In this document: piece after piece, positions 44,748-63,742 of the stretch
How the letters are laid out: every line of letters begins with the position of its first letter
Numbering within the stretch: the first letter of the stretch is position 1
Assembly: GCA_045656865.1 (NCBI GenBank)
Contig: JAZOSB010000053.1
Span: forward strand, 8,074 to 72,073
Direction: 5' to 3'
Length of the DNA stretch: 64,000 bases
Source: Clostridia bacterium
GTDB lineage: Bacteria > Bacillota > Clostridia > UMGS1883
Made by a program: the position numbers and the translations under genes
The notes under the pieces: generated by a model
What the model was told of the DNA's origin: nothing
The model's input: only the letters and a program-made list of their open reading frames with translations
The model's database searches: none

Positions 44748-45797
44748 TTATAGCAACAAATTATTCTTTTCAATAACATCTCCCACCGCTTTCGCTATTG
44801 AAGCAAATCCAAAATCGGTAGGATGGATTCCATCTACTGTTCCTTCATCCCCGCAAAGCTCCATCAAAGTCTCTCCACTAATAAAGTAGACATTTTCGTC
44901 ACCTGCATCAAGTGCATTTTTATATGTTGTCTCAATTATTCTTCGTCTTTCTTTTGCTTCTTCTGATAACTCAACTTTCGGACGGGGCATTATAATTATC
45001 GGAAGGCTTGGTTGTTCACTTCTTATCTCCTTAAACATTTTTTCGTGTGTATTTCTAAGATGTTCTAGCGTAGGAGCATTATAGTCATAGTCATAAACAA
45101 AAATTGACATATCTAACTTTTTTATATACTCAATCATCTCATCTTCAGCTTTTGCATTTCCTGAAAATCCTAAATTTATATAGTCGCAATTAAATCTTCT
45201 GGAAATAATACTTTGGTAGCATCTTCCCGGTCTTGAGGCACATCCGCCCTGAGTAATTGAAGAACCATAATATACAACCGGTTTACTGTTAAGATACGGA
45301 GAAGCCTCCTTCAAAACGGCATCTTTGGATACTCCGATATACATTTTGAGCACTTTGCCGTATAGTGGAAAATTAATCGTGAGATTGCGTAATTTCTTTT
45401 CTCCAAGCTCGATTACGCTTTCATACCCTTTTTCCATATTGCAAGGAGGAATAAAAGTTTTTACATAACTGTTATCACAGTACAGGTCAAAACCCGCCGA
45501 GCCTGTAAGTGCAAAGTGCGGTCTCATTCCGGCTCCATGCATTTCAACACTGATTGCAACATAGCTGCTGTCTGTAACAAATCTTACCCTGCCACCCGAA
45601 GTATCTGAATGAAGGTAAGAAACGCCCTCACTCACGCTTTGCGCTACCTTTTCAGGCATACGGCGATATTTTCCGTTTTCAAGTGTAACACCATATATGT
45701 TAAACGGTGCATCATTGATATTATAAAACTTAATATCATCCTTCTCTATATTTGTTTTAACCTCAAAATTTTTATCAATTTTAGATATGTCATTCAT
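44748..45797 (-). CDS. SGNH/GDSL-family hydrolase (putative carbohydrate acetylesterase) with an N-terminal beta-sandwich domain
   Basis: Block I VVYYGSSITQG, a GFSGNA block and block V DGIHPTDFG. No signal peptide. I prefer ATG 45797 (AGGAGG 7 nt upstream); the alternative ATG 45815 overlaps the upstream stop (ATGA). Confidence 0.75.
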   Translation of the reverse strand: MNDISKIDKNFEVKTNIEKDDIKFYNINDAPFNIYGVTLENGKYRRMPEKVAQSVSEGVSYLHSDTSGGRVRFVTDSSYVAISVEMHGAGMRPHFALTGSAGFDLYCDNSYVKTFIPPCNMEKGYESVIELGEKKLRNLTINFPLYGKVLKMYIGVSKDAVLKEASPYLNSKPVVYYGSSITQGGCASRPGRCYQSIISRRFNCDYINLGFSGNAKAEDEMIEYIKKLDMSIFVYDYDYNAPTLEHLRNTHEKMFKEIRSEQPSLPIIIMPRPKVELSEEAKERRRIIETTYKNALDAGDENVYFISGETLMELCGDEGTVDGIHPTDFGFASIAKAVGDVIEKNNLLL

Positions 45798-45811
45798 ACA
45801 TAGACCTCCTT

Positions 45812-47101
45812 TCATTCAAACTCCATAGGTTCAGGAAAACAAAAATACTTTCTTTCATCAATAAAGTACACATATGAATCAAAGGCTGCATTAAATCTCC
45901 AGTTGACACCATCTACGTTTTTATCAAGAGACCAGTCATCACCTGTAGGTCCGTGTCCGTAAAGATTCCATTGACAATCAAAGCTCATTTTCATTACTTC
46001 ATGCCCTATGCGACATGGCTGTCCGTCTATTTCCACAACTGAATTTCTTTCGTAGAGCTGTGCGTTTGGAGCAAATTCACGTATAACAGTCTCTATATCA
46101 TTATTCCCCGGAACAATTAAGTACGGAACCCCTGAATCTGATAAGATTTTCAGTATTATTTTTGCTTTTGAATAGTATTCATACTTAAGTTCGGGAATTC
46201 TGCCTACTTTAACTTCATCCACCAAATCCCCCGTGTGAAGTATCATATCAGGCTTTACTGTTTCTATCAGTTTACGATAATACGGATAATGCTTTGATAA
46301 GGTATCTCCTATATGTAATATTTTCTTGCCTTGTATTTTATCAAATTCATCAGGAATACATATTTCTTCCTTATACTCTTTCTCAAAGTATTCTTTATCC
46401 CATTCTTCCCTGCTCTTATGATTTGCACTGCACTTTTCATATGGAATATGGTCAGTGTCACAATATAATGGCACAAAATCTGAATTTTCAGTATCAATTG
46501 CTGATAAAGCGCAGTTAAACATAGCAAATTGTTTTTTTGCTACAATTCTTGATTTTGCTTTTTCTTTTATATTATACATTCTTATAAGAGCAGCAACAGA
46601 TGCAGCATGACCTACTACTAAAATTTCCTCTTCATCTTCATACTGCTTTATAACAGGTGTAAAACCCCTTTTAACTCTTTCTATCATACTCTCTTCGGTT
46701 TCCACCTGAAGAGTTCCGTCTTCTTCATACCACCATTTTTCGGGAAGAAAGGAATCGGCAAACACACGAGGAAACCTTTCTTTTATTTCCTCAATAGTAT
46801 ATCCTTGATATTCCTCTACCATTTTTTCAGTATCAAATATTTCGTGCAGAGATGCTACGGGATATATTACAGAATCTGTGATTTCCGCAATAATTGTCGC
46901 TGTTTCAAGGGTTCTGATAAGGGGGGAGCTTAGTATTTTTCCTTTAAAGCCAAGCTCCTTTAATCTTTTTCCGAGCAGTGCTGCCTGCTCCCGTCCAAGC
47001 TGTGAAAGCGGGGGTTCTCCAAAACGAATTCCTGCTTTTTCTTCCGGTGCCATAGCTTCAAGGTTTGCAACCTGACCATGTCGTGTAATATATAATTTCA
47101 T
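45812..47101 (-). CDS. Fusion protein: histidine phosphatase (PGM-like) N-domain + calcineurin-like metallophosphoesterase C-domain
   Basis: N-domain: MKLYITRHGQV (RHG) and VVGHAASV. C-domain: ILHIGDT, ILHTGDLVD, IVPGNND (GNHD/E with H replaced by N) and LYGHGP. No signal peptide. TAATG overlap with the upstream gene. Confidence 0.7.
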   Translation of the reverse strand: MKLYITRHGQVANLEAMAPEEKAGIRFGEPPLSQLGREQAALLGKRLKELGFKGKILSSPLIRTLETATIIAEITDSVIYPVASLHEIFDTEKMVEEYQGYTIEEIKERFPRVFADSFLPEKWWYEEDGTLQVETEESMIERVKRGFTPVIKQYEDEEEILVVGHAASVAALIRMYNIKEKAKSRIVAKKQFAMFNCALSAIDTENSDFVPLYCDTDHIPYEKCSANHKSREEWDKEYFEKEYKEEICIPDEFDKIQGKKILHIGDTLSKHYPYYRKLIETVKPDMILHTGDLVDEVKVGRIPELKYEYYSKAKIILKILSDSGVPYLIVPGNNDIETVIREFAPNAQLYERNSVVEIDGQPCRIGHEVMKMSFDCQWNLYGHGPTGDDWSLDKNVDGVNWRFNAAFDSYVYFIDERKYFCFPEPMEFE

Positions 47102-48732
47102 TATAATATTTCCTCTCTGTTATATATTCTTTCCTGCGGAATTTTATCCGATAATTCTGCAACCCTTGCTAAATAAATCGGGTTTGTCAGCATTATACAC
47201 CTGCCGTTTTCATTGTAAAGCTCTACTCGGGCAAAACTTACTGGTAATTTTGGCTCAATCTCAAAGTTGTGTTCTAAGCTGCCTTCCTTAAGAATTTCCT
47301 CCGCAAAAACTTCGCCGTCAACAATAACACGCATCTTCCAGTTATCTTTTACGCTTTCGGCAGTAAATTTCATTTTTCTTGCATTGAAGTCACGGTCTTT
47401 AATGGGGATTACTGCCCCCATAGGATATTCACCGCAAGTAAAATCGATATTGAAGTTCAAATATACAGGGTCCCCCGTATATACTCTGCCTGCTTTCATG
47501 GAGCCAATAAATTCTTCCTCAGGCACGGGAAAATCAAGCGAGTCATCTGCCGCTATGTATGTGGCAAAATTATTTCCCGAAAGCCATCCACGTTCACTGT
47601 TATGACTGTCGCTGTCTCCGTAGCCTGTGATGAATACCCCCGAAAGTGATAACATATCCCACAGCTTTAAATGCTCTTCAAGAGAAAAACCGCTTCTTCC
47701 CTCTGTAAACCCTATCTCGATAAGAGATGCCCCATAAACCTTTGTTGCCGACAAAGCCGCGGCCTCACGATATACAATTTTTTCCTTTTCTTTCTCCAAA
47801 AGATTCATCCTCACATATTTTTCAAAGGGATGATTGTATGAAAATATTCCACCATATTTTTTCACATGCTCTATCGCTTCATGCTGTGTAACATTGTAGC
47901 CTTTCTGCTGATAATCAATTATTGGAACTTTTGTAGAGTAGCAGTTCTTATGCTGTCCTGCATCGCTTATTTCAAACGTCACAAAAGGCTTAATTCCATA
48001 TCTTTTTCCTGTTTCTTCTGCAAGTGCACGCTGTCTGTCAAGAACGGGCTGAAAGCTATGCCTGAAATCTATTTTGAAGCAATTAAGAACACATTCTGCA
48101 CCATTTTTACAAATAACCTGAAATGTTAAAAATGCATTGTCAAGTCCTCCACGAGCATACTTTTGCGCATCTTCTGAAATATTCAGTGTATATATGCCGT
48201 TTTCGTTATCGGCAAGGGGAATTTCTCCGTTTTCTGCTTTCCCGATGGTATATACAAGGCTTGCAGGCTTATGCTCCAATGTTCCATCATTGCCAAATTC
48301 GGGGTGTTGCGACAGACATATTCTGAGTGACACTTTACCCGCTGAATTGATATGCCTTATTCCGACACGCAGTGTTACATCAGCTGCAAGGGAAACAGCA
48401 TGCCGTTTGCCTGATGAAAAGAACTCTACACCATATTCTTCGCCGATACTGCCCGTAATTTTCATTGCGTTTTCATCAAACGATATGCAAGGTGTGCCAA
48501 GCTCTTTCCAGCCACACTGTGTTTTCGGTGTATCGTTATACACCATCTCTCCTCGGGAAAAATCAAATTTATTTATGGGATATTCTCGCCTTCCCATTCT
48601 GATATCATGCCCTGTTATGCGGATATACTGCATACCTAAGGAAGCGGCATTTGCAATATGTCCCTCAAAGCTGCTGTGCGGCTCATTCCCTGCATGAAGA
48701 TGCATATGCATCGGATGATAAGTATATTTCAC
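47101..48732 (-). CDS. PHP-like (CehA/McbA-type) metal-dependent hydrolase with a ~200-aa insertion and a C-terminal beta domain
   Basis: HPMHMHLH and ITGHD near the N-terminus. After about 200 aa of beta-rich sequence come FEISD, SYNHPF and GYGDSDSH. No signal peptide. Confidence 0.55.
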   Translation of the reverse strand: MKYTYHPMHMHLHAGNEPHSSFEGHIANAASLGMQYIRITGHDIRMGRREYPINKFDFSRGEMVYNDTPKTQCGWKELGTPCISFDENAMKITGSIGEEYGVEFFSSGKRHAVSLAADVTLRVGIRHINSAGKVSLRICLSQHPEFGNDGTLEHKPASLVYTIGKAENGEIPLADNENGIYTLNISEDAQKYARGGLDNAFLTFQVICKNGAECVLNCFKIDFRHSFQPVLDRQRALAEETGKRYGIKPFVTFEISDAGQHKNCYSTKVPIIDYQQKGYNVTQHEAIEHVKKYGGIFSYNHPFEKYVRMNLLEKEKEKIVYREAAALSATKVYGASLIEIGFTEGRSGFSLEEHLKLWDMLSLSGVFITGYGDSDSHNSERGWLSGNNFATYIAADDSLDFPVPEEEFIGSMKAGRVYTGDPVYLNFNIDFTCGEYPMGAVIPIKDRDFNARKMKFTAESVKDNWKMRVIVDGEVFAEEILKEGSLEHNFEIEPKLPVSFARVELYNENGRCIMLTNPIYLARVAELSDKIPQERIYNREEIL

Positions 48733-50072
48733 TGTATTACCTCTATCCTTCCTACTTTATAAAAGCTTTCGTTTCTTTGTGCATCTGTACAAAAATATAC
48801 TACAGGTACCAATTCGTTGTATATTCCTATTTCTATGTCATATTCTCCCAGGGCAATATTTTCGGGGATATCCACTGAAAATTTTTCCACAGCTTTACCA
48901 GGGAGCCATTTTCTTATATCTGCATCTGTTTCAAACTCATACGAGTTCTCTTTTCCCAAAAGCCTTATTTTTAAAGGAATATTTTTGTATATCGGGGCAA
49001 CACCGCAGTTTTCTATTCCTAATTCAAGCTCCGCCTTATCGCCTGCGCACACTGTATCAGGACTCTTAAAATAGTCTATCATAAAATGATATCCCATTTT
49101 ACTTATCCAGTAATCTACCTTTTCTTTCCATTCGTATGGTATGGGAAGTGATTTTCCGTTAAAGGAGCTTATGTGCCATTCCAAAGTTTTCTCTATTATT
49201 TCATCTATATCCCAGCCCTGTCTTTTCCATTCGCCCAGCCACCAATATGCTTCAAAGGAAACAGGTGCTTTCTTCCAGTTGTCTGAAATTTTAGCAATAT
49301 GCGACGGATATATTTCCGTAAAAAGTCTCGGATGTCCTAATCCATCGCCTCTCCAACCTACATTTGTAACCTTATTTCCATAATTGATAAGTTCATCACG
49401 CATAACCTGTGTCATAAGCTGAGTATTTTTAAATACTTCCAGATATGTATCTACAATTTCATTTAAAGCTTCCTGACTGTACAGATGAAGATTATGCCCC
49501 TCTCCCCACGAGCCGGGAAGAGATATATCTATGGCTTCAAATACACTCTCTTTGTCAAATCTTTCTCCGAGTTTCCTTACTGCCTCGCAGAAGTATTTAA
49601 GAAACAGTGGATCTGTGGGTGAATCCTTTACTCTTTTTCCCTCCGGTCTTTTCGGGCAGGGAATAAGTTCTTTTAACCAATCGGGAACATCATCTCTCTC
49701 CCTTGTACTGTGCGCCATCAGTCTGAAAACAATGGTTTGATTATGAGCCTTTGCCTCATTTATTATATCCTCTATAAATTTATAGTTATATACTCCCCTT
49801 TCGGGTTCAAATTCCTTCCATAAAATACGGATATATGCAACCGATGAATCGGGATAAAAGCCCTGCTCTCTGCCGTTTTCCTCTACATCATCGGGTACAG
49901 GATAGCATTCAAACGGCTCTGTTTCCGTAAATTTGTTTTCAGGACGAACAATAGAATCTGAATACAGCTTTTCTCCGTTAAAATGCTGAAAGCTGGTAAA
50001 GCCTATATATGGATTTTGTCCTTCTTCCACTTTATATTTGAATGTATTTACCTTACTTGCTTTTCTTAACAT
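48729..50072 (-). CDS. DUF4874/DUF4832-like putative TIM-barrel glycoside hydrolase
   Basis: YIRILWKEFEPERGVYNYKFIEDIINEAKAHNQTIVFRL resembles the GH42/GH35-type N-terminal barrel motif. VGWRGDGLGHP resembles the DUF4832 signature. No signal peptide. Confidence 0.5.
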   Translation of the reverse strand: MLRKASKVNTFKYKVEEGQNPYIGFTSFQHFNGEKLYSDSIVRPENKFTETEPFECYPVPDDVEENGREQGFYPDSSVAYIRILWKEFEPERGVYNYKFIEDIINEAKAHNQTIVFRLMAHSTRERDDVPDWLKELIPCPKRPEGKRVKDSPTDPLFLKYFCEAVRKLGERFDKESVFEAIDISLPGSWGEGHNLHLYSQEALNEIVDTYLEVFKNTQLMTQVMRDELINYGNKVTNVGWRGDGLGHPRLFTEIYPSHIAKISDNWKKAPVSFEAYWWLGEWKRQGWDIDEIIEKTLEWHISSFNGKSLPIPYEWKEKVDYWISKMGYHFMIDYFKSPDTVCAGDKAELELGIENCGVAPIYKNIPLKIRLLGKENSYEFETDADIRKWLPGKAVEKFSVDIPENIALGEYDIEIGIYNELVPVVYFCTDAQRNESFYKVGRIEVIQ

Positions 50073-50092: not shown

Positions 50093-51484
50093 TTACTTAA
50101 ATGTCACATCTTCAAAAACAAAATCCTCTCGTGCGTCCGGGCGGTAGCTTTCTACAGTCACGTTATCAAGTAATAGTCCCTCAATGTGCCTGAAATAAAT
50201 CCCCTTTGCAGGAAGTGTCCAGCCGTACACCATTATTTCAGGATACGCAGGTGCCGTGTCGGGAACATTTTTTTCATATTCCGTCACACCTCCTGCTACT
50301 TTGAAATGCACATTACGAAGTGTGATATTTTTAAGCGGTTTATCCTTTAATCCGCAAACATTGCTTGAAAGCTGCCAAGGAGTATTTCTGCCACGTTCTT
50401 TAAGGCTTTCGTCCTCATTTTTTATCGTTGAATATATCCAAGGATATTGAAGATAATCATTCGCCTTATACTCAAAATAGCTCATAGGGATTGCACGGTA
50501 CGGCTCATATGGGCCCTCTGCCGTTATGTTTTCAAGGGTGATATTTCTTATCTCGCCCACTTCTCTGCCCTCAGGGCCACGCATACGTGTTCCTAGATGG
50601 ATAAATAAAAGTCCGTTTGTGTTTTTCATACGGATGTTTTTAAGTGAAAGACCGTCTATTATCGCACCGTCAACACTTTCGATTGCAATTCCCGTAATTC
50701 GTGTATCATAAACATCGATATTATCAATTTCTATATCGTAAAATCCGCCGTTTGTTTCTGTGCCGAATTTTATTGCAGAGCAGCGGCTTTTCACCCTGCA
50801 ATCCCATACCTTGATATTTCTGCACTCATCAAGTCGGTTAAGAGTGTACGAGGATTTAAAAACAATTCCGTCATCGCCCGACTCCACATCACAGTTGTAT
50901 ATCTTTACATTTTTGCTGTTATCGGGTGATATTCCGTCAATATAAACACACATCTTTACATCGTGTATATCAACATCATTACACCCTGCAAAGTATATCG
51001 CAAGGTCAGTGACATTGTTTAAATCCACATCTGTAATGAGGACATTATTACATTCTTTAAGGGAAATACATTTAGGTCCTCTGTGGCGTATGGTTGCTCC
51101 CCTTACGCCGTCCTCGTCCCATACACTGCGCATATCTATTTTTGCCTTTCCGGTAATAGCGATATTGTCGCAGTTTTTACCCACGAACATTGCAAGGTCA
51201 AAATATGTATGGGACTGGTCCTGATATGCAGGGTAATCTATTTCTTCCTGCTGTGCATAGGAATAAAAATCAAGGCATCCTAAAACATCAGTACCGTCCT
51301 CAAAATGAATATGTACATTGCTTTTTAAAAATACTGTTGCAAGGACATAGATGCCCTTTGGGAAATATACTTTTCCTCCCCCATTTTCGCTGCACGCATC
51401 TATTGCCTTTTGCACGGCAGGACTGTCAAGCGTTACTGCGTCTGCCTTTGCTCCATACTCTAAAACATTATATATTTTCCCCAT
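50093..51484 (-). CDS. GH28-family (exo-)polygalacturonase-like right-handed beta-helix glycosidase
   Basis: YNVLEYGAKADAVTLDSPAVQKAIDACSENGGGKVYFPKGIYV N-terminus and catalytic-region GISPDNSKNVKIYNCDVESGDDGIVFKS. No signal peptide. Confidence 0.8.
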   Translation of the reverse strand: MGKIYNVLEYGAKADAVTLDSPAVQKAIDACSENGGGKVYFPKGIYVLATVFLKSNVHIHFEDGTDVLGCLDFYSYAQQEEIDYPAYQDQSHTYFDLAMFVGKNCDNIAITGKAKIDMRSVWDEDGVRGATIRHRGPKCISLKECNNVLITDVDLNNVTDLAIYFAGCNDVDIHDVKMCVYIDGISPDNSKNVKIYNCDVESGDDGIVFKSSYTLNRLDECRNIKVWDCRVKSRCSAIKFGTETNGGFYDIEIDNIDVYDTRITGIAIESVDGAIIDGLSLKNIRMKNTNGLLFIHLGTRMRGPEGREVGEIRNITLENITAEGPYEPYRAIPMSYFEYKANDYLQYPWIYSTIKNEDESLKERGRNTPWQLSSNVCGLKDKPLKNITLRNVHFKVAGGVTEYEKNVPDTAPAYPEIMVYGWTLPAKGIYFRHIEGLLLDNVTVESYRPDAREDFVFEDVTFK

Positions 51485-51514: not shown

Positions 51515-53410
51515 TTATCTGGCAACAAATCCTTCGGGGGCAGGCATGGCAAAATTGGGGTAGAACTGTTCCGGAATCAGTGTCTCCGTGCCACTGACAT
51601 GGTGTCCGCCGTACATAAGTCGTTCGTGTTCCAATTCTTCAATATGGTCAATTTTGCCGCCTAAATAATCAAGTATTCTTTCCTTTGCTGCCTCCATACG
51701 CAGTATAAGTCCGCCGTAGCGTGTTTCAATTCGTTCTATTCCAAAGGGCTTATTGGTAGCCATCCACGAATCTCTCATCAGCTTGTGAAGTAGTTTCATA
51801 TCTGTCTGCATCTGACCAAGCTGCTGCGCAATTATGGCAAGCTCCGCCCTGTCGCCCTCATTATATGCCTTGTACAGACGAACACCGATATGGCACTTTG
51901 TTATAAGCACCTTTAAAAGCTGCTTGTGGTAGTCGTACAGCTTTTCAAAGCCTTCGGGAACACCTGCTTCATTTAAAATGCGCAGTCTTTCAGTGTAAAC
52001 CTCGGGGAGATTATGGATTTCAACATTTTTATCGTATAAACCCAGCAGCACGTCCTGATAAAACACATTTTTGGAGGTGGTGGCACCGCCGCCCCATCTT
52101 TCCTTATTGCACCATTCTTCGGGATATACATCCAAATCAAGTGCCATGAAATCCTCTGCATTATATCCTGTGCAGAGCTTGAAAGATTCAAAAAGCTCTG
52201 CCTCGGTCACTTCCTTATGATATGTATATTCACCGTAGAGCTGCATTCCTAAAAGAGTTGTATAAACATTTACCTCGCCGCCGTCATCTACCCAAAGGGT
52301 GGCAAAGGCATTTTTTATACCCTCCTCGTGGCAAACTTTAAGTGCTGCGTGTGTGGCAATAAATGACTTTCTGTAATTTACACTAAGCCCTAACCATCTG
52401 CGAATACCGCCTGCAAAGATAATCTCTTTTTTCAGGAGCTTATGGTTACTCATCATTATCTTGTATCTTTCTTCTCCCATTGAAACATAATCCCAGTAAA
52501 CCATAGCCACGTTTTCAGGAATCATATCGGGCAGATTTTCAGGGAACTCAACTTCCAAATCATAATACACATGCTTTTTTGATGCCAGACGGAAATAAAT
52601 ATCTGACCACATCATCGGCTCGTAGCCAAACTCATCGGTTATTTCTATAACCCTTTTAAGATGCATTTCCATCAGCTCAAAACGGTCACGGTAGCCGTGT
52701 TTATCAAGATATGCACCCTTTCCTACAGACGGTGCTTCATCCATACCGATATGGATTTTATTTGTCGTAAAGCATTCACGGCACCGCTCTATCATTTTGC
52801 GGATAAGGGCATAGGTTTCCTCCTCCCCTACTAAAAGGGTGTGGAAATTCTCCCTGATGTTCTCCGCAAAGGGCCACCGAAGTGCCGCCGCAAGATGCCC
52901 GAGTGTCTGTATACACGGTACCATTTCTACGCCGAAAAGGAGTCCATAGCGGTCAATTTCGATAAGCTCCTCCTTCGTATATGCACCACGAAGATAGCCA
53001 AAATAGGGGTAGCCCTCTATTTCATAGGTGTCCTCGGTATAGAGCATCGCCATATTAAGTCCCATTGCAGAAATTCTTCTTATTATATCCTTAACCGTAT
53101 CTACTGTTAAAACAGCATTACGGGAGCAGTCAATCATAATACCGCTTGTTGTAAGCAGGCGTTCCTCTTTTATCTCAACTTCATTTTCGCCCCTTGCGAG
53201 CCTTCCGTTAAGCAGGCTCACTGCACGAAAGAAATCGGCTTTTTCCCCGTATGTAATTTCATACTCGTTCTCTTTTCCCTCAACCTTTAATCCGTTTTCA
53301 CCCTTTATTACGGTAATAGTAATTTCATCGCCCAGTGCAGAAAGTGCACCTGTCTCTTTAAGCTCTGCTATACCTTTTTCTATATCTTTAAAACTGCCGT
53401 TTAATATCAT
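51515..53410 (-). CDS. GH20-like glycoside hydrolase (beta-N-acetylhexosaminidase family)
   Basis: GIMIDCSRN...TLGHL...IHIGMDEA (D-E catalytic pair in an HxGxDE-like context). ATG 53410 lies 8 nt after GAGGAGG. No signal peptide. Confidence 0.6.
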   Translation of the reverse strand: MILNGSFKDIEKGIAELKETGALSALGDEITITVIKGENGLKVEGKENEYEITYGEKADFFRAVSLLNGRLARGENEVEIKEERLLTTSGIMIDCSRNAVLTVDTVKDIIRRISAMGLNMAMLYTEDTYEIEGYPYFGYLRGAYTKEELIEIDRYGLLFGVEMVPCIQTLGHLAAALRWPFAENIRENFHTLLVGEEETYALIRKMIERCRECFTTNKIHIGMDEAPSVGKGAYLDKHGYRDRFELMEMHLKRVIEITDEFGYEPMMWSDIYFRLASKKHVYYDLEVEFPENLPDMIPENVAMVYWDYVSMGEERYKIMMSNHKLLKKEIIFAGGIRRWLGLSVNYRKSFIATHAALKVCHEEGIKNAFATLWVDDGGEVNVYTTLLGMQLYGEYTYHKEVTEAELFESFKLCTGYNAEDFMALDLDVYPEEWCNKERWGGGATTSKNVFYQDVLLGLYDKNVEIHNLPEVYTERLRILNEAGVPEGFEKLYDYHKQLLKVLITKCHIGVRLYKAYNEGDRAELAIIAQQLGQMQTDMKLLHKLMRDSWMATNKPFGIERIETRYGGLILRMEAAKERILDYLGGKIDHIEELEHERLMYGGHHVSGTETLIPEQFYPNFAMPAPEGFVAR

Positions 53411-53479
53411 TTTAATTTCCTCCTCGTAGGGGCGACCCTGTGTGGTCGCCCGTAATGCGATGATTGACACGTTTCGTCA

Positions 53480-54565: not shown

Positions 54566-54592
54566 TGCAAATTTCCTTTCTGTATATGAGTA

Positions 54593-54620
54593 AAGGGGAG
54601 GCGGCATGCCGCCTCCCCTT
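54593..54620 (-). terminator. Perfect 28-nt GC-rich palindrome (terminator or processing hairpin)
   Basis: AAGGGGAGGCGGCATGCCGCCTCCCCTT is its own reverse complement. It lies 22 nt after the stop at 54643. The U-tract is weak. Confidence 0.5.
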
Positions 54621-55683: not shown

Positions 55684-58446
55684 TTATTTTTCGCCTACTA
55701 TAACAATCATATTGGGGTCAAGCTCTACGTCAAGATTTATGAATATATTTGACGCACCATCGATTCCGTAAACCTCCTCACTGCGTACTGCCGCATATGT
55801 AGCATGGTACACCTCTTTTTCTCCACGGTCAAAGAAGTATATCGGGCAGCCTGTCGCATCAAAGGATTTCGTGATTTCATTGCCGAAGTTATCATAACCG
55901 AAATGAACATTGATTACGCACTTATTCGCTCTGGGATCCGTTCTTATAGTTTTTATCCTGCCGTACATATTATCGGCGGATTGATAGAAGGACAGGCTTC
56001 TGTCGCTAAGGCGTATGCGCCGTACACAGCTCCACATATCGCCGCCTATTATTTTGGCAACCTTGGGCGTGGTTGCTGTTCCGGTGCTCCCTGTAAGTGC
56101 CGCAAACACTACATCACCCGGCTTTAAATCATCAAAGCAAGCGGCGGTGGCATTTCTGTCGTCCGACATGTAGGTGTAGCTTGCGCCAATGTTCAGCGTG
56201 TCAATTTTATGAACCCATGCATCTTCACTGCTGCTGTAAACATTTGTAACCTTATTTATAATCATAGGACGTGTGTAGTCAATCATAAAGTCGGGATCGC
56301 TCTTTGTTCTGTCGTGCCATACGAACACCGTCTCGGGAAGTCCCTCTGCGTCTCTTCCCCACATCAGCGTTTCAAAGCTACCTCCGAATTTAATCTTGTT
56401 AAGCTCTGAATAGAGCCAGTCATCATCCTCCATTGACAGCGGAATATAGTTCATCTGCGTTTTATAGCTGATATCATATTCTCCGAAGGATTCATTGTAG
56501 GGGCCGTCACCCATATACGTTCTTTTCTCTCGGGGACTCGTAATGGGAACGGTTTCAATCATCTTCACCTTACCCTCGGAGTTAAATTCCACGTATTTAA
56601 GGGGGCGCAGGAATTCATAACCGCCTACTGTCTTCTTGTCTGCTTCGGACAACCTGAGTGCATCTAAAATTCCGTCGCCTGTGCGCATTGTGCCATTTAT
56701 TTTAACACGCTCCGCACAGTCAAGAATCTGAATTTTCTTTCCGTAGTTACCTGCCGCATAGCAAACCTTCAGCTGAACATATCCACCTATTGTCTTTGTT
56801 TTTCCTGCATTAATCAGAGTATATTGGAAGTTATAAAGCTCCTCCTCCTTTTCTGCATAGAAAAGCTCCTTTGCAAAGTCGAAATACAGCTTGTATTTTT
56901 TTCCTAACTGAACATCACAGAGCACAGGATCGAAATCATCTGCCACTCCATAGGTTACGCCGTCAATAACAACCTCGTCATCGCCAAGTTCCTCAATCGT
57001 TCCCACTACCATTGAGGAGAGAAGTTCTATCATATAATACGGCTTGTCGTCAACTTCACTTTCAATGATACCGATAACGTCATCCTCACGCAGCATATTA
57101 AGCGAAATATATTCGCCGTCTTTTACAATATCATACGTAACATCATTATAAATTGGATTTAAAACAAGCGGTGTTGTTGTAGGATTGTTTTTAAAGAAAA
57201 TGTGCTTGTCATAAATAGAAACAACGTCCACAATCTCTACATCGTAGCTTGTTACAAGTGCTACGTCGTAAATATTGTCGTTATCGGAATCTATCAGCAC
57301 AACTTTACCGCACGATGGGAAAAGAGCCGCATTTGTCACCCTCGGAATTGTTTCGGTATTAAATATAAGTGACAAATACTTGTCAAGTGACACCTTGTTT
57401 CGTCCGTAATCCTTACTGTTCTTATCCTCAACAAAATATTCAATGTACGGACTGCCATTATCCCCTACGTCGAAGCCGTAAACCTCTGTTATGTCGTAGC
57501 TCATCAACTCCATAACCTTAGCGTCCTTTATGTATGCGTAGACAAGCTCATATTCGTCAGACGAAAGCTCTCTGTAATAATACTCTGTATTATAGCCCGT
57601 CATCTGATGAATATGGGGGAGCTTTTCAACATTATAGTCGTAGAGGATACCCTCAATCTCAATCTCGCCCATTTTCAGGTCATCGCTCTGTCCTGCGCCG
57701 AAAAGGCGGCAAAGAGATGTTCCCGTAACCTGCCCCTTGTCAATGCGTATTTTGTGACTAAGAGAGAGCAGTGTTGCGTTGTCCTGCTTTTCCATATGAT
57801 AGCTGCCGTTGGAGCTTAACCCCTCAATGGTGAGGACATCTACCTTCATCGCCTCATACACCATTTTCACGGCATCGCCCCATGTAACATATTTATCTGT
57901 TGCAACAGCCGTTGCAATTTTAAGCTTGACTGCCATATTGGTGTACCCATCCGGCCAGCCGCCGCTGTTTTCTGCCGCCACGCCGTAGCCTGTCGCCATA
58001 ACCATTACCTTGCAGAATTCAGCATAGCTTAAGTTATCATTTGGTGCAAAGATATTTCGGCCCTTACCGCTGAATATCCCGTCAAGCGTTACTACATTTA
58101 TATATCCTACATTTTTGCTGTACACCGACACGTCGTGATAGTAGCTTACGTTTGATACAGTTTCGGCAAGGTTTTCCTTGGCAAGCATTTTGGTAACGAG
58201 GACTGCCGCTTCCTCTCTTGTTATATAGGAAGCAAAATCCACCCCCTCGGGAATCATATCCATTGCATTTAAAAGCCCTGCTTCGATATCGATTGCCTTG
58301 GGGAACTCGGTCTGTGCATATTCCTGTGCATTCTGCTTATACATCTGAACAAGCACGGAATCCTCACTCTCTGCCAGTGCATATGAAGGAAGAAGCAAAA
58401 GCATACTCATCAAAACAGCTGTCATTCTTTTCAATTTATTCTTCAT
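55684..58446 (-). CDS. Cell-surface protein with N-terminal SLH-like repeats followed by ~700 aa of unknown function
   Basis: Signal peptide MKNKLKRMTAVLMSMLLLLPSYALA. SLH-like segments (ITREEAAVLVTKML; FAPNDNLSYAEFCKVMVMATGY; VTWGDAVKMVYEAM). The start at 58446 follows GGAGGAG and overlaps the upstream gene by 11 nt. Confidence 0.75.
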   Translation of the reverse strand: MKNKLKRMTAVLMSMLLLLPSYALAESEDSVLVQMYKQNAQEYAQTEFPKAIDIEAGLLNAMDMIPEGVDFASYITREEAAVLVTKMLAKENLAETVSNVSYYHDVSVYSKNVGYINVVTLDGIFSGKGRNIFAPNDNLSYAEFCKVMVMATGYGVAAENSGGWPDGYTNMAVKLKIATAVATDKYVTWGDAVKMVYEAMKVDVLTIEGLSSNGSYHMEKQDNATLLSLSHKIRIDKGQVTGTSLCRLFGAGQSDDLKMGEIEIEGILYDYNVEKLPHIHQMTGYNTEYYYRELSSDEYELVYAYIKDAKVMELMSYDITEVYGFDVGDNGSPYIEYFVEDKNSKDYGRNKVSLDKYLSLIFNTETIPRVTNAALFPSCGKVVLIDSDNDNIYDVALVTSYDVEIVDVVSIYDKHIFFKNNPTTTPLVLNPIYNDVTYDIVKDGEYISLNMLREDDVIGIIESEVDDKPYYMIELLSSMVVGTIEELGDDEVVIDGVTYGVADDFDPVLCDVQLGKKYKLYFDFAKELFYAEKEEELYNFQYTLINAGKTKTIGGYVQLKVCYAAGNYGKKIQILDCAERVKINGTMRTGDGILDALRLSEADKKTVGGYEFLRPLKYVEFNSEGKVKMIETVPITSPREKRTYMGDGPYNESFGEYDISYKTQMNYIPLSMEDDDWLYSELNKIKFGGSFETLMWGRDAEGLPETVFVWHDRTKSDPDFMIDYTRPMIINKVTNVYSSSEDAWVHKIDTLNIGASYTYMSDDRNATAACFDDLKPGDVVFAALTGSTGTATTPKVAKIIGGDMWSCVRRIRLSDRSLSFYQSADNMYGRIKTIRTDPRANKCVINVHFGYDNFGNEITKSFDATGCPIYFFDRGEKEVYHATYAAVRSEEVYGIDGASNIFINLDVELDPNMIVIVGEK

Positions 58447-60589
58447 TTTGCTCTCCTCCAATCTCATGTTTAAATTTTGTTTTTTCATATAGTTCTTTAT
58501 TCCAGTAGTCGCCGATTTCCTTTGTCATATATCCTGCCTTTTCCCATGCCACGTTTACGGGATGAATTCCCGTGTCACGCTCAACACCGTCAAAGTATGC
58601 CTTCCATATTTCACCGACAACCTTAACACAGCCCCAGCCTGAGTCATAATACTTTTTCTGTGCATGCGTCATTGCAGGAAGCAGGCTTTCCATTTCCCAC
58701 AAATCATAGATTGCAAAATCAGCCAACTCAAGTGCACGGTCAAGATATTTCTCGTTTCCCGTACCCTCGTAAAGAATTCTTAAAAACTCCATTTCATCTG
58801 CCAGACTAAACGGCATATATTCAGACGTTGTCAGTCTGCTTTCCAGATTATCAAATCCGTATTTATCAGCCCACCATGTGAGCCATTCTGTCAGTTTATC
58901 CCTGAACTCCCCTTCAGGAAGATCCTCCCATGTGTAGATATAACCCCACGACTCGACTGGCGAAGTGAATTGTGAAGGCTGACCTGTTCTCAGATATACC
59001 TGCCTTAAAAAGCTGCTCTTTCCCTTTGAAGTGTCCGCATAGAAAAATTTTTCGTTTTTCTCGATAAATCGCTCCATTCTCTCCCTGATATTTTCAGGAA
59101 CGAGGGGCATTACCTCAATCATATGCGAGACTAAAAGCTGCTGACCAAACATCCAGGCTGATCTGGGGCGGTTACTGCCGTAGTACAGCTCCTGTGTTAT
59201 GACATCATTCTCATTCATAATACTGCCGAGCCGCTCAACCCAGTTCATAAGGGAATAAAGTGCCTCCATAAACTGTGGGTCGCCCGTATAATGATATCCC
59301 CATGCATAGGCATAGAGCATCGGGTCAAGCATCTGCAGATAGTTACCTGTAACAGTTCCTGTTGAGTCAAGATTTGTATGGCGTCCGAAGGAGAAGTCCT
59401 TATAGTTTGCAAGAGTCGTACTGTACCAGGATAAAAGATGCTGATGCGTCGCCTCGGGGTCTGTCTCAAACATTTTATGTATGAAAAACGGTATGCGCAT
59501 CAGATATCGCTGTCCGTAGTAGGCCTCATTTAAAGAGCCCTGTGCACTTACTTCTTCCTCGCTGGTTGCGTACTGATTGGGGGTATTGAAGGTTGCCGTT
59601 ATCGGGTCATATATCATATGCTTACCCCATACCAACACACCGTTGTCGGGAAGTATAAGGTGATCCAGTAAAAATGCGAAAACTCCGTCTGCAATTTCCT
59701 CATACCTTTTTTCGCCCGTCATCGCAGTAAGGTCATACATTATTTCATAAAGATATACCTCGGGTGATACTTCACAGCCGCTGTTTCTCTCGTCAGAGTT
59801 ATATGTCTCCCTCGGCCATTCGGTAACGTAATATCCAGGATATTGAAGCGTGTCACGGTCAAGCATTCCGAAAAAGAGACCGCTTTTTCTGCCGATGGTA
59901 TTTCTTCCGGTTATGCTCGTCACGATCTCAACTCTGTTGCCTATTTCGTAATAGTTAGAATACTTGTCGTCTTTAAAATTATAAAGGAAATCATTATTAA
60001 AATACTTGGTATCTCTGCCGTACTCGCACATTGTATCCACATAATCTACGATAAGGTCGTACATACTGCGGCTGTTTGCCGTTGCAGTAAATTTCTTTGT
60101 CGCCTTTGCTTTCCCCTTTGTTATCGTAGCGGTTATTGTTACATCCGTTATTTTCTTAGGGGCGGTAAACTTGCCCTTATCAGAAATTATGTGGGGGTGG
60201 CTTGATTTCCACAAGATGCGGCTGCCGTTTTTTCCCTCTGCTACAAAGTTAAGATTACGGGAAACGCATTTAAGAAAGCCTAATGAAAGTGCGTCGCTAT
60301 CTTTTTTAACTGCTTCCTCATCCGTAAGATTGAGATTTTCATCTATAATCTTATCGTCAGTATTTTCAGTATTTTCTGCATTTTCATTTTTCTCTATTTC
60401 TTCTTCATTTAAGATATCCGATGCATCCTCAATATCATAATCCTCGTTGTCGACTTCTTCTTCCGTGATTTCTTCCTCAGAAGCTATCTCTTCTCCATCT
60501 TCTGTTGCAAGGGCACTTATGCCTCCCGTAAAAAGGCACAGTACAAGGAGTAAGGAAAGAAGTTTTTTCATATATAATAATTTTTTCAT
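58436..60589 (-). CDS. Secreted protein: acidic linker + atrophied-Ig-like domain + large helix-rich domain of unknown family
   Basis: Signal peptide. The segment SRILWKSSHPHIISDKGKFTAPKKITDVTITATITKGKAKATKKFTATA resembles Ig-like modules common in secreted CAZymes. The remaining ~500 aa is rich in W/Y/F and helix-like sequence. Confidence 0.75.
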   Translation of the reverse strand: MKKLLYMKKLLSLLLVLCLFTGGISALATEDGEEIASEEEITEEEVDNEDYDIEDASDILNEEEIEKNENAENTENTDDKIIDENLNLTDEEAVKKDSDALSLGFLKCVSRNLNFVAEGKNGSRILWKSSHPHIISDKGKFTAPKKITDVTITATITKGKAKATKKFTATANSRSMYDLIVDYVDTMCEYGRDTKYFNNDFLYNFKDDKYSNYYEIGNRVEIVTSITGRNTIGRKSGLFFGMLDRDTLQYPGYYVTEWPRETYNSDERNSGCEVSPEVYLYEIMYDLTAMTGEKRYEEIADGVFAFLLDHLILPDNGVLVWGKHMIYDPITATFNTPNQYATSEEEVSAQGSLNEAYYGQRYLMRIPFFIHKMFETDPEATHQHLLSWYSTTLANYKDFSFGRHTNLDSTGTVTGNYLQMLDPMLYAYAWGYHYTGDPQFMEALYSLMNWVERLGSIMNENDVITQELYYGSNRPRSAWMFGQQLLVSHMIEVMPLVPENIRERMERFIEKNEKFFYADTSKGKSSFLRQVYLRTGQPSQFTSPVESWGYIYTWEDLPEGEFRDKLTEWLTWWADKYGFDNLESRLTTSEYMPFSLADEMEFLRILYEGTGNEKYLDRALELADFAIYDLWEMESLLPAMTHAQKKYYDSGWGCVKVVGEIWKAYFDGVERDTGIHPVNVAWEKAGYMTKEIGDYWNKELYEKTKFKHEIGGEQNEE

Positions 60590-60597
60590 ACTTCACC

Positions 60598-63500
60598 TCA
60601 CTGTACGCTGAGCAGTCTTTGTATAATAACTGCTGCCTGTGCACGTGTTGTAGTGGTCTTTGGTGAGAATTTATCCTCTGAAATTCCTTTTATAATACCT
60701 GCATTGTTAAGTGCGGCTACTGCCTCATATGCAAAGTATGAAATTTCCCCCGAATCCTTCCACGCTGTGTTTTCATCGGTTGCTTCAACACCAAGCTCTG
60801 CAAGAAGCGCACTGCGGTATGCCATAACAGCCATTTCTTCCCTTGTAATTTCCTTTCCTATACCAAAGGAGCCGTCCTCATATCCGCCGCAGATACCTAA
60901 GGACTGTGCCACAGACACTGCATCAAAATACCAGCTGCCTTTTTCTACATCAGTAAATTCTGCTGATGCCTTTTCATCTGTAAAGCCAAACGCCCTTACA
61001 AGCATACTGAGATACTGCTCACGTGTGACAGTGCCCTCGGGCTTGAAGCTGTTTTCGCCCATTCCGTTTACAATGCCCTTCTCTGTAAGCTCTGCTATGC
61101 TTTCATATGCCCAATGCTCCTCGGGAACATCAGCAAAGGTATTGTTTGTGGGGGCGCTTTCGTCTACAGGGGGCTTTACTTCAACAGGTACGGGTGGTTT
61201 TACTGTGGCTCCGCCGCCACCACCGCCACCGCCGCCTGATGCAACGATGCCTGTAGAGCTGCCCGAGCCGCTTTCTTCGGAGTTGTCACGACCTGTACCC
61301 TCTACAGTGACGCCGAATTCCTTTACAAGTGTTCCCGACGAATTTGTAAGTGTGGCCTGAAGCACGCAGTATTTGTCACGCCGTCCGTCAGGTCTTGTAA
61401 CATTTCCTTTATCATCAATCAGACTTGTGTCAAGTGATTTCCACGTAATGGTCGAGCCAAACTCACTTCCCGTCGTCGGAAGCGTTATATTTTCCTTCGT
61501 TTTTTCAGGGATGCTTATTTTCTTATAATCCCGTTCAAGCTTACTGGGCACATACAAATCAAAATTCCTTAAAAATGTAAGCACACCGTAAGTCATCTCC
61601 GCACTGAGGCGTACATTCGACTTTTCCGAAATATCGGGCACCTTTATTTTTCCTAAATTAGCACTGTCCGTTTCGTCCGTCGCTATTACATCTGATACAA
61701 CGTAATTTTCACCCTCAGGTGTTTTCGCAGTCCAATTAATAGTGCAACCGCCGTCAGTTACGGTTGGCAGCACGATATCCTCCGTTATATTTTCCATATT
61801 CTGGTCGCAAAAGCTTGAAAAGGTAAGATTTTCAAAATCAGGCTTAAGTGTCAGAACATCGGGCTTTTCAAAAATAAATCCGAAGTTGTCTGCACCATTG
61901 TACGTACGCGGCTCCACTGTAATAACAATCCTGGTTATATAATGACCTGCAGGGGCTTTAATTCCGTAGAAGGTATTTTTCTCCTTCGTGGCTACTTTAT
62001 CATTGCCCGCTTCATGATTTATTCCATAGGTTTTCTGCGTTCCGTCGGAAAATGTAGCTTGAATTCCAAAGCCATCGGATACATAGTTTTTGTAAGTTCC
62101 CTTGGAAACGTAAACAAATCCGAAGTGAGTCGCCCTGTAATCCCCCGTCTGGCTTGTATCAAATAAATAGTCGTTTTCTTGATTAACTGCCGGTGATACA
62201 ATTTTATACATTTTTCCTGATGGCACCAAGATCTTCTTTCGTTTAGAAGGCGTAGAAGCCAGATTCTTTTCTGTAGCTATTTCATTAGCTTCATTAACCC
62301 ATTCTGTCCATGGGTTTCTAGTTACAGTCGTAAAAGTAAAAATCTTTTCCCTATCCTTTGAAAGTGGCACAGTGAATAGTTTTTCCAGTTCTTCAGCTGT
62401 AGGCGCTTCAGGATTTGCGAACTCTCCGCCTTCAAAGTTTATCATTGCGACATCCTGTTTGTCGTTGTCTGCTGCTGCCGCTTTCTCCATAGCAGCTATG
62501 AATTCACCCATCGTAAGGTCGGTCTGTTCAGACAATACCTTTTCCGTTTCTTCATCATAATACTTTTCACTATTTTCAGCATATACTTCGTAAGCGTCAT
62601 AACCGATTCTTGATACGTCGTAATACGGGGAAACGCTTGTATCTACCGTGATTGTCTTTGTTTTGATTCTTTCCCCTGCCGAAGCAGTCAGCGTAATTGC
62701 ATCAGGCATAACTGCCTGCTGCTTTATTATAAGCTTTCCGTCTTTAATCTCGGCAACATCATTGTTATCGACAGTTATCTCAACCGCGCTGTCAAGCTCT
62801 CTTCCGAACTGGTCAAGCACCTTTGCCGTACAATCGTATTCAAGGATGGAACCATAGTAAGAGGTTTTTACAGTATCGGGTGCAGTTATTTCAATACGTT
62901 TCGGTCTTGCCTCTTCACTTAGAACCTCCTGCGTTATGAGAGAGAGGTCGTCAATTCCTGTAGCGTATATTACATTTTTTTCAGGATCAGGAGATATTAT
63001 AATCACAAGCTTGGTTATGAAGCAGTTCTCAGGTGCCTCAAAGCCCACAAAGTCGCTGGATCCGGCTTTGGCGTTTGAACCCTTAGTGACGGTGATAGTT
63101 TCACTCCCAGACGTTTCACCGTCAGAAATATTTGCGTAATGTGCCGTAATCTTCATATTTAGGTTTCTTCTCGTCGATATAAATCCGACAGCCTTTACAA
63201 CCTCCAGTTTGTCTTTGTTGACAGCAGGGGAAAACGTATACGTCCACTCACTGCCACCATCTAAATAGAGAATAGTAGATCCCGAAGAAGCATACCCGTG
63301 TATTAGTGATTGGCCTGCAGCGACTTTGAAGCGCATGTATGCAGAATCTACGTCATGCTTAACGGAAAGGGACTTTTCCTTTTCCCCGTTCTCGTTCTCC
63401 TTGCCGTATTGCAGATTAAGGGTGTCTATCCCCGAGCCAATATCAAGTCCCTCAAAGGTACAGATGGCCGTTCTGCCATCTTCTTCCGCAGCTTCAAGCT

Positions 63501-63705
63501 TAACCTTAAACTCGTCAAGGGTGAATGCAGAGCCTTCCGTATGACCTATGTCATCCAGTTCATACGCCCCCGAATCAGCGAGGCTTTTCGGGCAGACAAC
63601 ATCTTGAGATTGCGCCAAACCCGTTATACAAAATCCGGGCAAGCTAAGACTTGCCGCAGTAAGTAAACAAACCAATCTTTGTTTTGCTTTTTTTGTAAAA
63701 ATCAT
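60598..63705 (-). CDS. Large multidomain surface protein: 2x uncharacterised FxGxxAP module, Big_2-like domain, 2x Ig-like modules, Gly9/Pro-rich linker, 3x C-terminal SLH
   Basis: The signal peptide follows ATG 63705 (AAAGGAG upstream). C-terminal SLH repeats are FADVPEEHWAYESIAELTEKGIVNG, FTDVEKGSWYFDAVSVAQSLGI and WKDSGEISYFAYEAVAALNNAGIIKG. Confidence 0.8.
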   Translation of the reverse strand: MIFTKKAKQRLVCLLTAASLSLPGFCITGLAQSQDVVCPKSLADSGAYELDDIGHTEGSAFTLDEFKVKLEAAEEDGRTAICTFEGLDIGSGIDTLNLQYGKENENGEKEKSLSVKHDVDSAYMRFKVAAGQSLIHGYASSGSTILYLDGGSEWTYTFSPAVNKDKLEVVKAVGFISTRRNLNMKITAHYANISDGETSGSETITVTKGSNAKAGSSDFVGFEAPENCFITKLVIIISPDPEKNVIYATGIDDLSLITQEVLSEEARPKRIEITAPDTVKTSYYGSILEYDCTAKVLDQFGRELDSAVEITVDNNDVAEIKDGKLIIKQQAVMPDAITLTASAGERIKTKTITVDTSVSPYYDVSRIGYDAYEVYAENSEKYYDEETEKVLSEQTDLTMGEFIAAMEKAAAADNDKQDVAMINFEGGEFANPEAPTAEELEKLFTVPLSKDREKIFTFTTVTRNPWTEWVNEANEIATEKNLASTPSKRKKILVPSGKMYKIVSPAVNQENDYLFDTSQTGDYRATHFGFVYVSKGTYKNYVSDGFGIQATFSDGTQKTYGINHEAGNDKVATKEKNTFYGIKAPAGHYITRIVITVEPRTYNGADNFGFIFEKPDVLTLKPDFENLTFSSFCDQNMENITEDIVLPTVTDGGCTINWTAKTPEGENYVVSDVIATDETDSANLGKIKVPDISEKSNVRLSAEMTYGVLTFLRNFDLYVPSKLERDYKKISIPEKTKENITLPTTGSEFGSTITWKSLDTSLIDDKGNVTRPDGRRDKYCVLQATLTNSSGTLVKEFGVTVEGTGRDNSEESGSGSSTGIVASGGGGGGGGGATVKPPVPVEVKPPVDESAPTNNTFADVPEEHWAYESIAELTEKGIVNGMGENSFKPEGTVTREQYLSMLVRAFGFTDEKASAEFTDVEKGSWYFDAVSVAQSLGICGGYEDGSFGIGKEITREEMAVMAYRSALLAELGVEATDENTAWKDSGEISYFAYEAVAALNNAGIIKGISEDKFSPKTTTTRAQAAVIIQRLLSVQ
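61210..61236 (-). repeat. Nine consecutive Gly codons (mixed GGC/GGT/GGA) in the linker of the SLH protein
   Basis: Plus strand reads tcc gcc gcc acc acc gcc acc gcc gcc. Confidence 0.9.
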
Positions 63706-63742
63706 ATGTTTTCTCCTTTCCGTCTCCTTCGATACCAAATAA

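Follow-up and report, generated by a model that had tools for sequence, protein, structure and literature searches.

In Gram-positive fibre degraders, S-layer homology (SLH) domains can tether polysaccharide-active proteins to the cell wall, as is the case for the pectinases of Monoglobus pectinilyticus and the SLH enzymes of Caldicellulosiruptor and Thermoanaerobacterium, and such SLH-anchored glycan degraders, in which the SLH domain is usually fused to the enzyme, are found in Clostridia and Paenibacillus. At the level of gene clusters, yesOPQRSTUVWXYZ and ytcPQ-ytePQRST of Bacillus subtilis reportedly serve the use of rhamnogalacturonan; they combine extracellular lyases, β-propeller enzymes of family PL11, with import of unsaturated oligosaccharides by an ATP-binding cassette (ABC) system, the cytoplasmic GH105 enzymes YteR/YesR, SGNH acetylesterases, a TIM-barrel galactosidase-like enzyme and a large AraC-type regulator (YesS, about 760 amino acids, aa). 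In the polysaccharide utilisation locus (PUL) BT4145-BT4183 of Bacteroides thetaiotaomicron for rhamnogalacturonan I (RG-I), a surface binding protein and a surface lyase precede GH105 acting on unsaturated galacturonate (GalA) and then GH28 rhamnogalacturonidases, with SusC/D import, periplasmic processing, lyases of families PL9, PL11 and PL26 and a GH106 rhamnosidase (PMC8002723). The locus described here comprises eleven genes, g1 to g11, on the minus strand (44748-63705) of a 64,000-nucleotide (nt) stretch from an uncultured Clostridia bacterium of the gut (contig JAZOSB010000053.1), the whole of which is referred to as the window. Its logic appears to be that of the B. subtilis clusters and the B. 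thetaiotaomicron PUL, with the PL11, PL9 and PL26 lyases replaced by a divergent PL2-like enzyme and the binding proteins by SLH proteins of unknown fold.

We read the locus, with somewhat better than even confidence, as a Gram-positive PUL (gpPUL) that targets an acetylated glycan with galacturonate, most probably of the pectic RG-I or homogalacturonan type. The B. subtilis clusters are not known to include SLH-anchored proteins, a GH20 enzyme or phosphoesterases, by which the locus differs from them, and the B. thetaiotaomicron PUL has no counterpart of g1-g4. Unlike in most SLH systems, the enzyme carries no SLH domain itself, two SLH proteins flank it, and reading frames overlap. The central component is

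58436..60589, minus strand: g2, 717 aa, candidate metal-dependent polysaccharide lyase with signal peptide, Asp/Glu-rich linker, aBig_2 domain and a predicted all-helical toroid of about 540 aa (58439-60067)

The initial annotation had reported no recognisable lyase in the window and no catalytic motif in any of its four secreted proteins, which does not hold for g2. The protein scores 31.1 bits against the Pfam model Pectate_lyase_2 (PF06917; gathering threshold 26.6), with positions 41-148 of the 491 profile positions covered, and eight of ten members of the g2 family match the same model, the best at 6.4e-11. A profile of the family trimmed to the g2 domain retrieves from the PDB the PL2 lyase YePL2A of Yersinia enterocolitica (2v8i/j/k, E 2.7e-5) and, in addition, 6ojk and 5a29; a single-sequence phmmer search of the PDB with g2 did not find PL2. 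In family PL2, which includes YePL2A and YePL2B of Y. enterocolitica and VvPL2 of Vibrio vulnificus, His109, Glu130 and His172 (YePL2A numbering) are the metal ligands and Arg171 is the Brønsted base (PMC10992409). H109, E130 and R171-H172 of YePL2A align to g2 H324 (codon at 59618-59620), E355 (59525-59527) and R403-H404 (59378-59383), all four of which are invariant across the g2 family, where identity goes down to 33%; with about 11% of columns invariant, four coincidences by chance would be expected with a frequency of about 1.5e-4. H324, E355 and H404 are thus putative metal ligands and R403 the putative base. The AlphaFold2 (AF2) model (pTM 0.69) is all-helical, and its roughly 14 long helices form about seven pairs. 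By sequence comparison the toroid domain of g2 is a homologue of the PL2 lyases, and g2 is probably a very rare, unannotated distant relative of this family with a predicted lyase activity. The earlier proposal that depolymerising and binding functions reside in the secreted proteins is supported. A candidate lipobox in the g2 signal peptide (LVLC) was rejected, as the residue at position -1 does not fit, and the aBig_2 domain is of the kind found in Geobacillus AbnA.

The genomic context of g2 is shared by six locus types: that of the window, L012, L010/L011, L001-L004, L005-L008 and L009, with L012 and L010 as the closest relatives of the window locus. Throughout, the genes follow in the order g1-like, g2-like, g3-like, a protein composed of g4-type domains (named here after the fourth gene) and GH105, at 34-83% identity, except that in L009 the GH105 gene stands apart. 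GH105 thus accompanies the g1-g2-g3 cassette in 6/6 locus types and GH28 in three (window, L010, L009). Since GH105 acts only on 4,5-unsaturated uronates, such a context calls for a lyase. Reading frames of g2 and g3 overlap by 8-11 nt in all six. The cassette appears to be rare and matches no characterised operon: g2-family proteins form seven clusters among 5.8 billion proteins, a genome scan gave one locus in 185,579 species genomes, and a scan of JGI metagenomes found no g2 catalytic domain. Among the matches listed from 1.84 billion sequences searched, four to five 50%-identity representatives bear the toroid (P0003, P0031-P0033, P0098), a lower bound, as this exhaustive HMMER search used the full-length g2 alignment and the promiscuous aBig_2 domain dominated the matches. 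All copies recovered stem from metagenome assemblies or from metagenome-assembled genomes (MAGs) of Clostridia; where a habitat is stated it is ruminant gut, as for L001-L003, L006 and L007 from the XIEF21 metagenome set. L001-L004 and L005-L008 are two paralogues of the complete cassette, and each has a separate transporter and regulator; they co-occur in sample ERZ28653880 and apparently in a single MAG of Clostridia (locus tags IKB93_07965 and IKB93_05910). The variable fourth gene differs between them, as do the genes downstream.

Compared with family PL2, g2 has significant similarity over the active-site segment, the His/Glu/His metal ligands and the Arg base, a predicted all-helical toroid fold and a genomic context of uronate processing. 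On the other hand, only about a quarter of the g2 domain can be aligned, the position of Lys132 is not conserved in the g2 family, and g2 is an extracellular protein of a Gram-positive bacterium that also has an acidic linker plus an aBig_2 domain and comes from a tiny family without annotation. Its substrate may also be RG-I-like and not homogalacturonan.

Indications for the nature of the substrate come from the second half of the operon, the products of which lack a signal peptide by inspection:

53480..54607, minus strand: g5, 375 aa, YteR-type GH105 unsaturated rhamnogalacturonyl/galacturonyl hydrolase (Pfam Glyco_hydro_88, PF07470, 1e-97)
51515..53470, minus strand: g6, GH20 exo-β-N-acetylhexosaminidase of the GcnA/GH20C type (Pfam GcnA_N, Glyco_hydro_20, Glyco_H_20C_C)
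50093..51484, minus strand: g7, 463 aa, GH28 β-helix glycosidase (Pfam Glyco_hydro_28, PF00295, 8.4e-14, cut-off 22.9; acid motif SGDDG)
48729..50072, minus strand: g8, 447 aa, DUF4832 protein with a GH42/GH35-like TIM-barrel N-terminus (Pfam DUF4832 2.7e-17, Glyco_hydro_42 8.4e-5; weak PDB matches to GH35)
47101..48732, minus strand: g9, 543 aa, PHP-type metallohydrolase of the CehA/McbA family with an insert of about 190 aa (NCBIfam NF038032, 84.1 bits, cut-off 80)
45812..47101, minus strand: g10, 429 aa, histidine phosphatase (RHG motif) fused to a calcineurin-like metallophosphoesterase (Pfam His_Phos_1 1.4e-24, Metallophos 1.9e-9)
44748..45815, minus strand: g11, 355 aa, two-domain SGNH esterase (Pfam GxDLY β-sandwich 2.7e-25, Lipase_GDSL_3 2e-39; GSS and DGIHP motifs)

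These seven family assignments agree with the initial annotation and were confirmed by Pfam, NCBIfam and PDB searches; so was the pectin and rhamnogalacturonan flavour that it had seen in this half. g5 matches YteR, the unsaturated rhamnogalacturonyl hydrolase of B. subtilis, over its full length (PDB 1nc5, residues 17-372, 5.3e-87), and an orthologue with 59-88% identity is present in 5/5 related locus types. For g7, the best specific model is NCBIfam RhamgalacuronBT4146 (3.1e-87) with 293 bits, below the equivalog cut-off of 500 bits, and the PDB matches are 5olp and 3jur; BT4146 is an RG-I rhamnogalacturonidase (PMC8002723). g7 thus seems closest to the RG-I rhamnogalacturonidases, while a match below cut-off does not fix its exact specificity. 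Together, the affinities of GH105 and GH28 point to RG-I or homogalacturonan. g6, with a likely start at the ATG at 53410 which gives 631 aa, matches PDB entries 2epk (4.8e-116) and 5a69 (GH20C, 7e-115), has the catalytic D-E pair in HIGMDEA and is 86% identical to its orthologue in L010. g8 is a probable glycosidase of clan GH-A and g11 a probable sugar O-deacetylase, both by sequence family.

The remaining secreted proteins of the first half are

60598..63705, minus strand: g1, 1035 aa, putative wall-anchored glycan-binding protein with signal peptide, two g4-type domains, an Ig-like segment, aBig_2 domain(s) and three C-terminal SLH repeats
55684..58446, minus strand: g3, 920 aa, putative wall-anchored partner or scaffold for g2 with signal peptide, an N-terminal triple SLH (about 57844-58311) and about 700 aa of all-β sequence
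54643..55650, minus strand: g4, 335 aa, secreted, putative soluble or loosely attached glycan-binding protein with one g4-type domain, shared with g1, and a small C-terminal domain

From these components a route from the cell surface to the cytoplasm can be proposed. An AraC-type regulator encoded beyond the window would turn the operon on from the conserved region 5′ of g1. g1 and g3 would bind the secondary cell-wall polymer via their SLH domains and capture the glycan with β-rich modules, including the g4-type domain, of which g4 would be a free copy. Lacking an anchor and being translationally coupled to g3, g2 is probably held at the wall by g3. g2 would then cut the uronan by metal-assisted β-elimination, with R403 as the base and H324/E355/H404 as metal ligands, and the adjacent ABC system would import the unsaturated oligosaccharides. 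In the cytoplasm, GH105 is expected to take off the unsaturated uronate, GH28 galacturonate and the SGNH esterases acetyl groups, and the GH20 enzyme, the DUF4832 TIM-barrel enzyme and the two phosphoesterases would process further substituents.

Several observations weigh against this reading, some concerning the activity of g2, others the surface proteins and the substrate. The similarity to PL2 spans about 125 of the about 540 residues of the g2 domain; the pairing of E355 with E130 lies in a gappy stretch of the alignment and is the least certain of the four; Arg272 and Glu515 of PL2 fall outside the alignable region and could not be placed. The AF2 model of g2 has a pLDDT of 66 and is poorest around the putative active-site loops, and the top 50 Foldseek matches are generic (α/α)6 toroids (epimerases, GH76, GH88) with PL2 absent, a comparison that does not discriminate. 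For every member of the g2 family it is comparison that suggests lyase activity, and for g1, g3 and g4 a binding role is suggested by their architecture and the scarcity of conserved polar residues. g2 might be read as a six- or seven-hairpin toroid hydrolase, an epimerase or a binding protein, with the depolymerase being g3, the g4-type domain or encoded elsewhere. The Foldseek matches to epimerases, GH76 and GH88-like toroids, all at low template modelling (TM) scores, weak Pfam matches of some family members to GlcNAc 2-epimerase and GH127, and the lack of any assigned function for either g3 or the g4-type domain would fit such a view. We nevertheless consider it unlikely: significant sequence matches of the toroid are confined to PL2, whose metal and base residues are invariant, the GH105 of every locus needs the product of a lyase for which no locus contains another candidate, and g3 and the g4-type domain are nearly devoid of invariant polar residues.

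As to the substrate, there is no rhamnosidase in the window, pectin breakdown as described in textbooks involves neither a GH20 enzyme nor phosphoesterases, and L001 carries genes for a CE4 deacetylase and a GH109-like protein after GH105, which also suggests substrates with N-acetylhexosamine (HexNAc). The misfit of GH20 and phosphoesterases had been noted from the beginning; GH20 recurs only in L010 and g9-g11 are unique to the window. With the same architecture and lyase mechanism, the target could therefore be a HexNAc/uronate glycan, acetylated and perhaps phosphorylated, such as a microbial capsule, an exopolysaccharide, a teichuronic-type wall polymer, or a host or other dietary gut glycan. 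Besides the missing rhamnosidase and the CE4 and GH109-like genes, such a substrate would account for the GcnA/GH20C-type hexosaminidase between GH105 and GH28, kept in L010/L011, and for the two phosphoesterases and the second esterase that the window adds. DUF4832 genes, moreover, are accessory genes of Gram-positive loci for Pel, a GalNAc polymer (PMC7112168). On the other hand, g5 is far nearer to YteR than to any GH88 glycosaminoglycan enzyme, g7 is nearest to RG-I rhamnogalacturonidases, the GH28 of L009 is a PglA-like exo-polygalacturonase (1e-102), PL2 as the nearest lyase family acts on galacturonan, and g9-g11, present in no relative and of lower G+C content, may be unrelated additions. 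We consider a non-pectic substrate distinctly less probable than a galacturonate-containing pectic one.

With a pectic gpPUL as the preferred reading, the new elements of this rare locus are a candidate lyase subfamily and, likewise as candidates, two domain families, and not a new principle of glycan use. If active, g2 would represent a new, deeply divergent branch of PL2 or a sister family, and the metal-assisted (α/α)-barrel lyases would then also include extracellular enzymes of gut Clostridia. Current CAZyme annotation would probably miss enzymes of the g2 type, since they match the PL2 model over only about a quarter of its length. On the practical side, the locus provides a concrete set of proteins for expression from gut metagenomes.

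Concerning the secreted proteins, Pfam and structure comparisons linked the g2 toroid to PL2 and matched the SLH portions, whereas the β region of g3 and the g4-type domain found no match. In g1, the g4-type domains lie at about 62644-63678 and 61753-62673 and the SLH repeats at about 60601-61140, with Pfam matches to aBig_2 (3.6e-19) and, in three stretches, to SLH (5.7e-36); orthologues with 34-59% identity occupy the same position in all related loci. The SLH part of g3 is weakly matched by Pfam, yet a family profile matches the SLH trimers of SpaA and Sap (E 9.6e-18), and the AF2 model (pLDDT 78) superposes this part on SpaA-SLH with a Foldseek target TM of about 0.7. Triple tandem SLH domains in both g1 and g3 are thus supported by sequence and structure comparison. 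The all-β remainder of g3, about 700 aa, had no match in Pfam, NCBIfam or the PDB, including a profile search with the β region; a DDB1 β-propeller proposed by Foldseek for the whole model was spurious (TM 0.07, root-mean-square deviation 30).

g4 has no match in Pfam, NCBIfam or the PDB. An iterative profile hidden Markov model search of the window and the related loci delineated the g4-type domain as a unit of about 200 aa with the signature F..A..FE ... F.G.KAP.G.YI...I....DD, which occurs once in g4, twice in g1 and one to three times per protein at the equivalent positions of L001, L005, L009, L010 and L012. Its profile has no relatives among PDB sequences, and a wider profile search returned the window's own protein only, with a candidate list probably filled by signal-peptide words and hence uninformative. 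As the invariant residues are nearly all hydrophobic or Gly/Pro, the composition of the domain suggests a binding or structural rather than a catalytic module. In L005, a g4-type domain is fused to a GDSL esterase (1118 aa).

Between the window and L010, identity amounts to 36% for g4, 59% for g1, 73% for g2, 80% for g3 and 86-89% for GH105, GH20 and GH28; the faster divergence of the surface proteins would be consistent with diversifying pressure on exposed proteins. Distant homologues of g3 with 20-26% identity are encoded in L013 (6518-12610), L014 (8271-12643) and L015 (4924-10660), always directly behind an SLH protein, which hints that the pair of g3-like and SLH protein may be a reusable surface module. 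The glycan loci L013-L015 differ otherwise, with neighbours such as GH20 and a DSE-like_N/F5_F8 protein, large aBig_2 proteins, or a WbsX-like protein accompanied by an ABC transporter and an AraC-type response regulator. g3 and the g4-type domain may represent new modules for carbohydrate binding or scaffolding in Gram-positive fibre degraders, in which surface glycan capture is far less understood than in the Sus paradigm of Bacteroidetes. Only tentatively, and as a minority view, can g1, g3 and g4 be taken further as an undescribed Gram-positive apparatus for glycan capture at the surface, with a new domain of about 200 aa and a β-rich module of about 700 aa, in which an anchorless enzyme, g2 as the founding member of a PL2-like family, would be recruited co-translationally and the pair of SLH and g3-like protein would serve as an exchangeable platform.

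Of the other genes, g6 and g7 are common only to the window and L010/L011, and g8 has a counterpart in L001. The DUF4832 gene of L001 (680-2050), on the opposite side of the cassette, is 75.5% identical to g8, compared with only 38-65% for the other genes common to both loci, which could reflect a separate transfer or stronger constraint. g9 has no Pfam match; its HxH motif (HMHLH) is N-terminal and followed by about 190 residues before the region that matches CehA/McbA (253-521), and this stretch gave only non-significant β-trefoil-like matches (E 0.3-0.7). The metallophosphoesterase part of g10 has the motif GNND in place of the usual GNH(D/E). g9-g11 (44748-48732), for which no related locus has a counterpart, form the part of the locus with the lowest G+C content (0.365-0.40 versus about 0.43) and look like a later addition to the operon.

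At its upstream side the locus is incomplete, being truncated by the edge of the window:

63816..64000, minus strand: 3′-terminal part of a small SGNH/GDSL esterase gene truncated at the window edge, first locus gene on that side (tail DGVHPKAPGH)
63706..63815, minus strand: intergenic candidate promoter/operator region 5′ of g1 with an extended -10 element TGGTATAAT at 63751-63743 and a GGAG ribosome-binding site, the function being predicted

Neither a sugar transporter nor a regulator is encoded inside the 64-kb window. Their absence, remarked upon in the initial annotation, is almost certainly an artefact of the window edge: L012 and L010 carry both immediately upstream, and next to g1 every relative has a divergent ABC binding protein of 522-530 aa together with two permeases and an AraC-type regulator of 743-772 aa. 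In L012 a 216-aa GDSL esterase stands between the transporter genes and g1, preceded by the divergent substrate-binding protein, two permeases and the AraC regulator. The esterase tail of the window has about 88% nucleotide identity to this Lipase_GDSL_2 gene, and the last 262 bases of the window align, at about 88% identity, with the end of the L012 gene and the next intergenic region. Given this collinearity and the synteny with relatives of 58-89% protein identity, the transporter and an AraC-type regulator of about 745 aa almost certainly lie just past 64000, as judged by comparison. The association of transporter and regulator with the enzymes, by which a gpPUL is defined, is seen in all related loci and not within the window itself. 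The non-coding region 63706-63815 is nearly base for base the same as L012 4703-4813, including the TGGTATAAT extended -10, and might be a candidate operator for the AraC-type regulator. Ahead of TGGTATAAT, a block GTCGGGAAAATGGCA.AAATTCAAGGAAACTGTCTCTTT is conserved in the window and L012 alike.

The layout of the operon is as initially read, with eleven minus-strand genes, tight gaps or overlaps and the four secreted products of the lengths given; the opposite strand holds no credible reading frame. With the most plausible starts, the products of g1 to g11 have 1035, 717, 920, 335, 375, 631-651, 463, 447, 543, 429 and 355 aa, and coding sequence on a single strand makes up about 99% of the 19 kb, a dense packing that cannot be chance. 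The junction of g1 and g2 is a gap of 8 nt; g2 and g3 overlap by 11 nt with a GGAGGAG ribosome-binding site within the end of g2; gaps of 33 nt (g3/g4), 35 nt (g4/g5), 9 or 69 nt (g5/g6, set by the choice of the g6 start), 30 nt (g6/g7) and 20 nt (g7/g8) follow, and the last genes are linked by overlaps of 4 nt (g8/g9), 1 nt (g9/g10, TAATG) and 4 nt (g10/g11, ATGA). By inspection, g1-g4 begin with classical signal peptides with a K-rich n-region, a hydrophobic core and an AxA-type site. A terminator scan found no minus-strand intergenic terminator within the locus, and the eleven genes form one transcription-unit-like block with a strong terminator at its end, beyond which the border of the locus is marked by a tRNA gene:

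44548..44600, minus strand: intrinsic terminator at the operon end, hairpin of -30.3 kcal/mol (z -5.0) followed by the U-run UUUCUUUUUUU
44271-44346, plus strand: tRNA-Pro(TGG) (ARAGORN, Rfam)
44532-44554, plus strand: exact 23-nt copy of the tRNA-Pro 3′ end (repeat search; 0 chance matches expected)

The region of tRNA-Pro and repeat (44271..44554) separates the accessory locus from the dcw cell-division cluster (mraZ, rsmH, a penicillin-binding protein gene, murE, mraY, ftsW, murG and others), which follows downstream of the operon and the tRNA. That the locus adjoins this cell-wall and division cluster, together with SLH domains as they are typical of S-layer proteins, might suggest that g1-g4 are ordinary structural proteins of the S-layer or cell envelope, functionally unlinked to the adjoining sugar-catabolic genes. 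This is highly improbable, as the order g1-g2-g3-(g4-type)-GH105 recurs with a divergent sugar ABC transporter and an AraC regulator in six locus types at 34-83% identity, the relatives of the cassette do not stand beside dcw genes, and g2 bears an enzyme domain.

The repeat GTCCTGTCACTCCGACCAAAAAA, an exact direct repeat of 23 nt, is present at 44329-44351, the 3′ end of tRNA-Pro(TGG), and at 44532-44554, 203 nt apart, without a third copy in the window, and the second copy abuts the operon terminator. An integrated island at tRNA-Pro was considered and rejected, as the sole second copy of the tRNA 3′ end is only 203 nt away and the locus is not bracketed; the pair of GTCCTGTCACTCCGACCAAAAAA copies resembles an att-type scar left at the tRNA by integration or excision. 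The remainder of the window is housekeeping, including rpoB, metK, recD2, topA, dprA, dnaG, rpoD and ftsZ.

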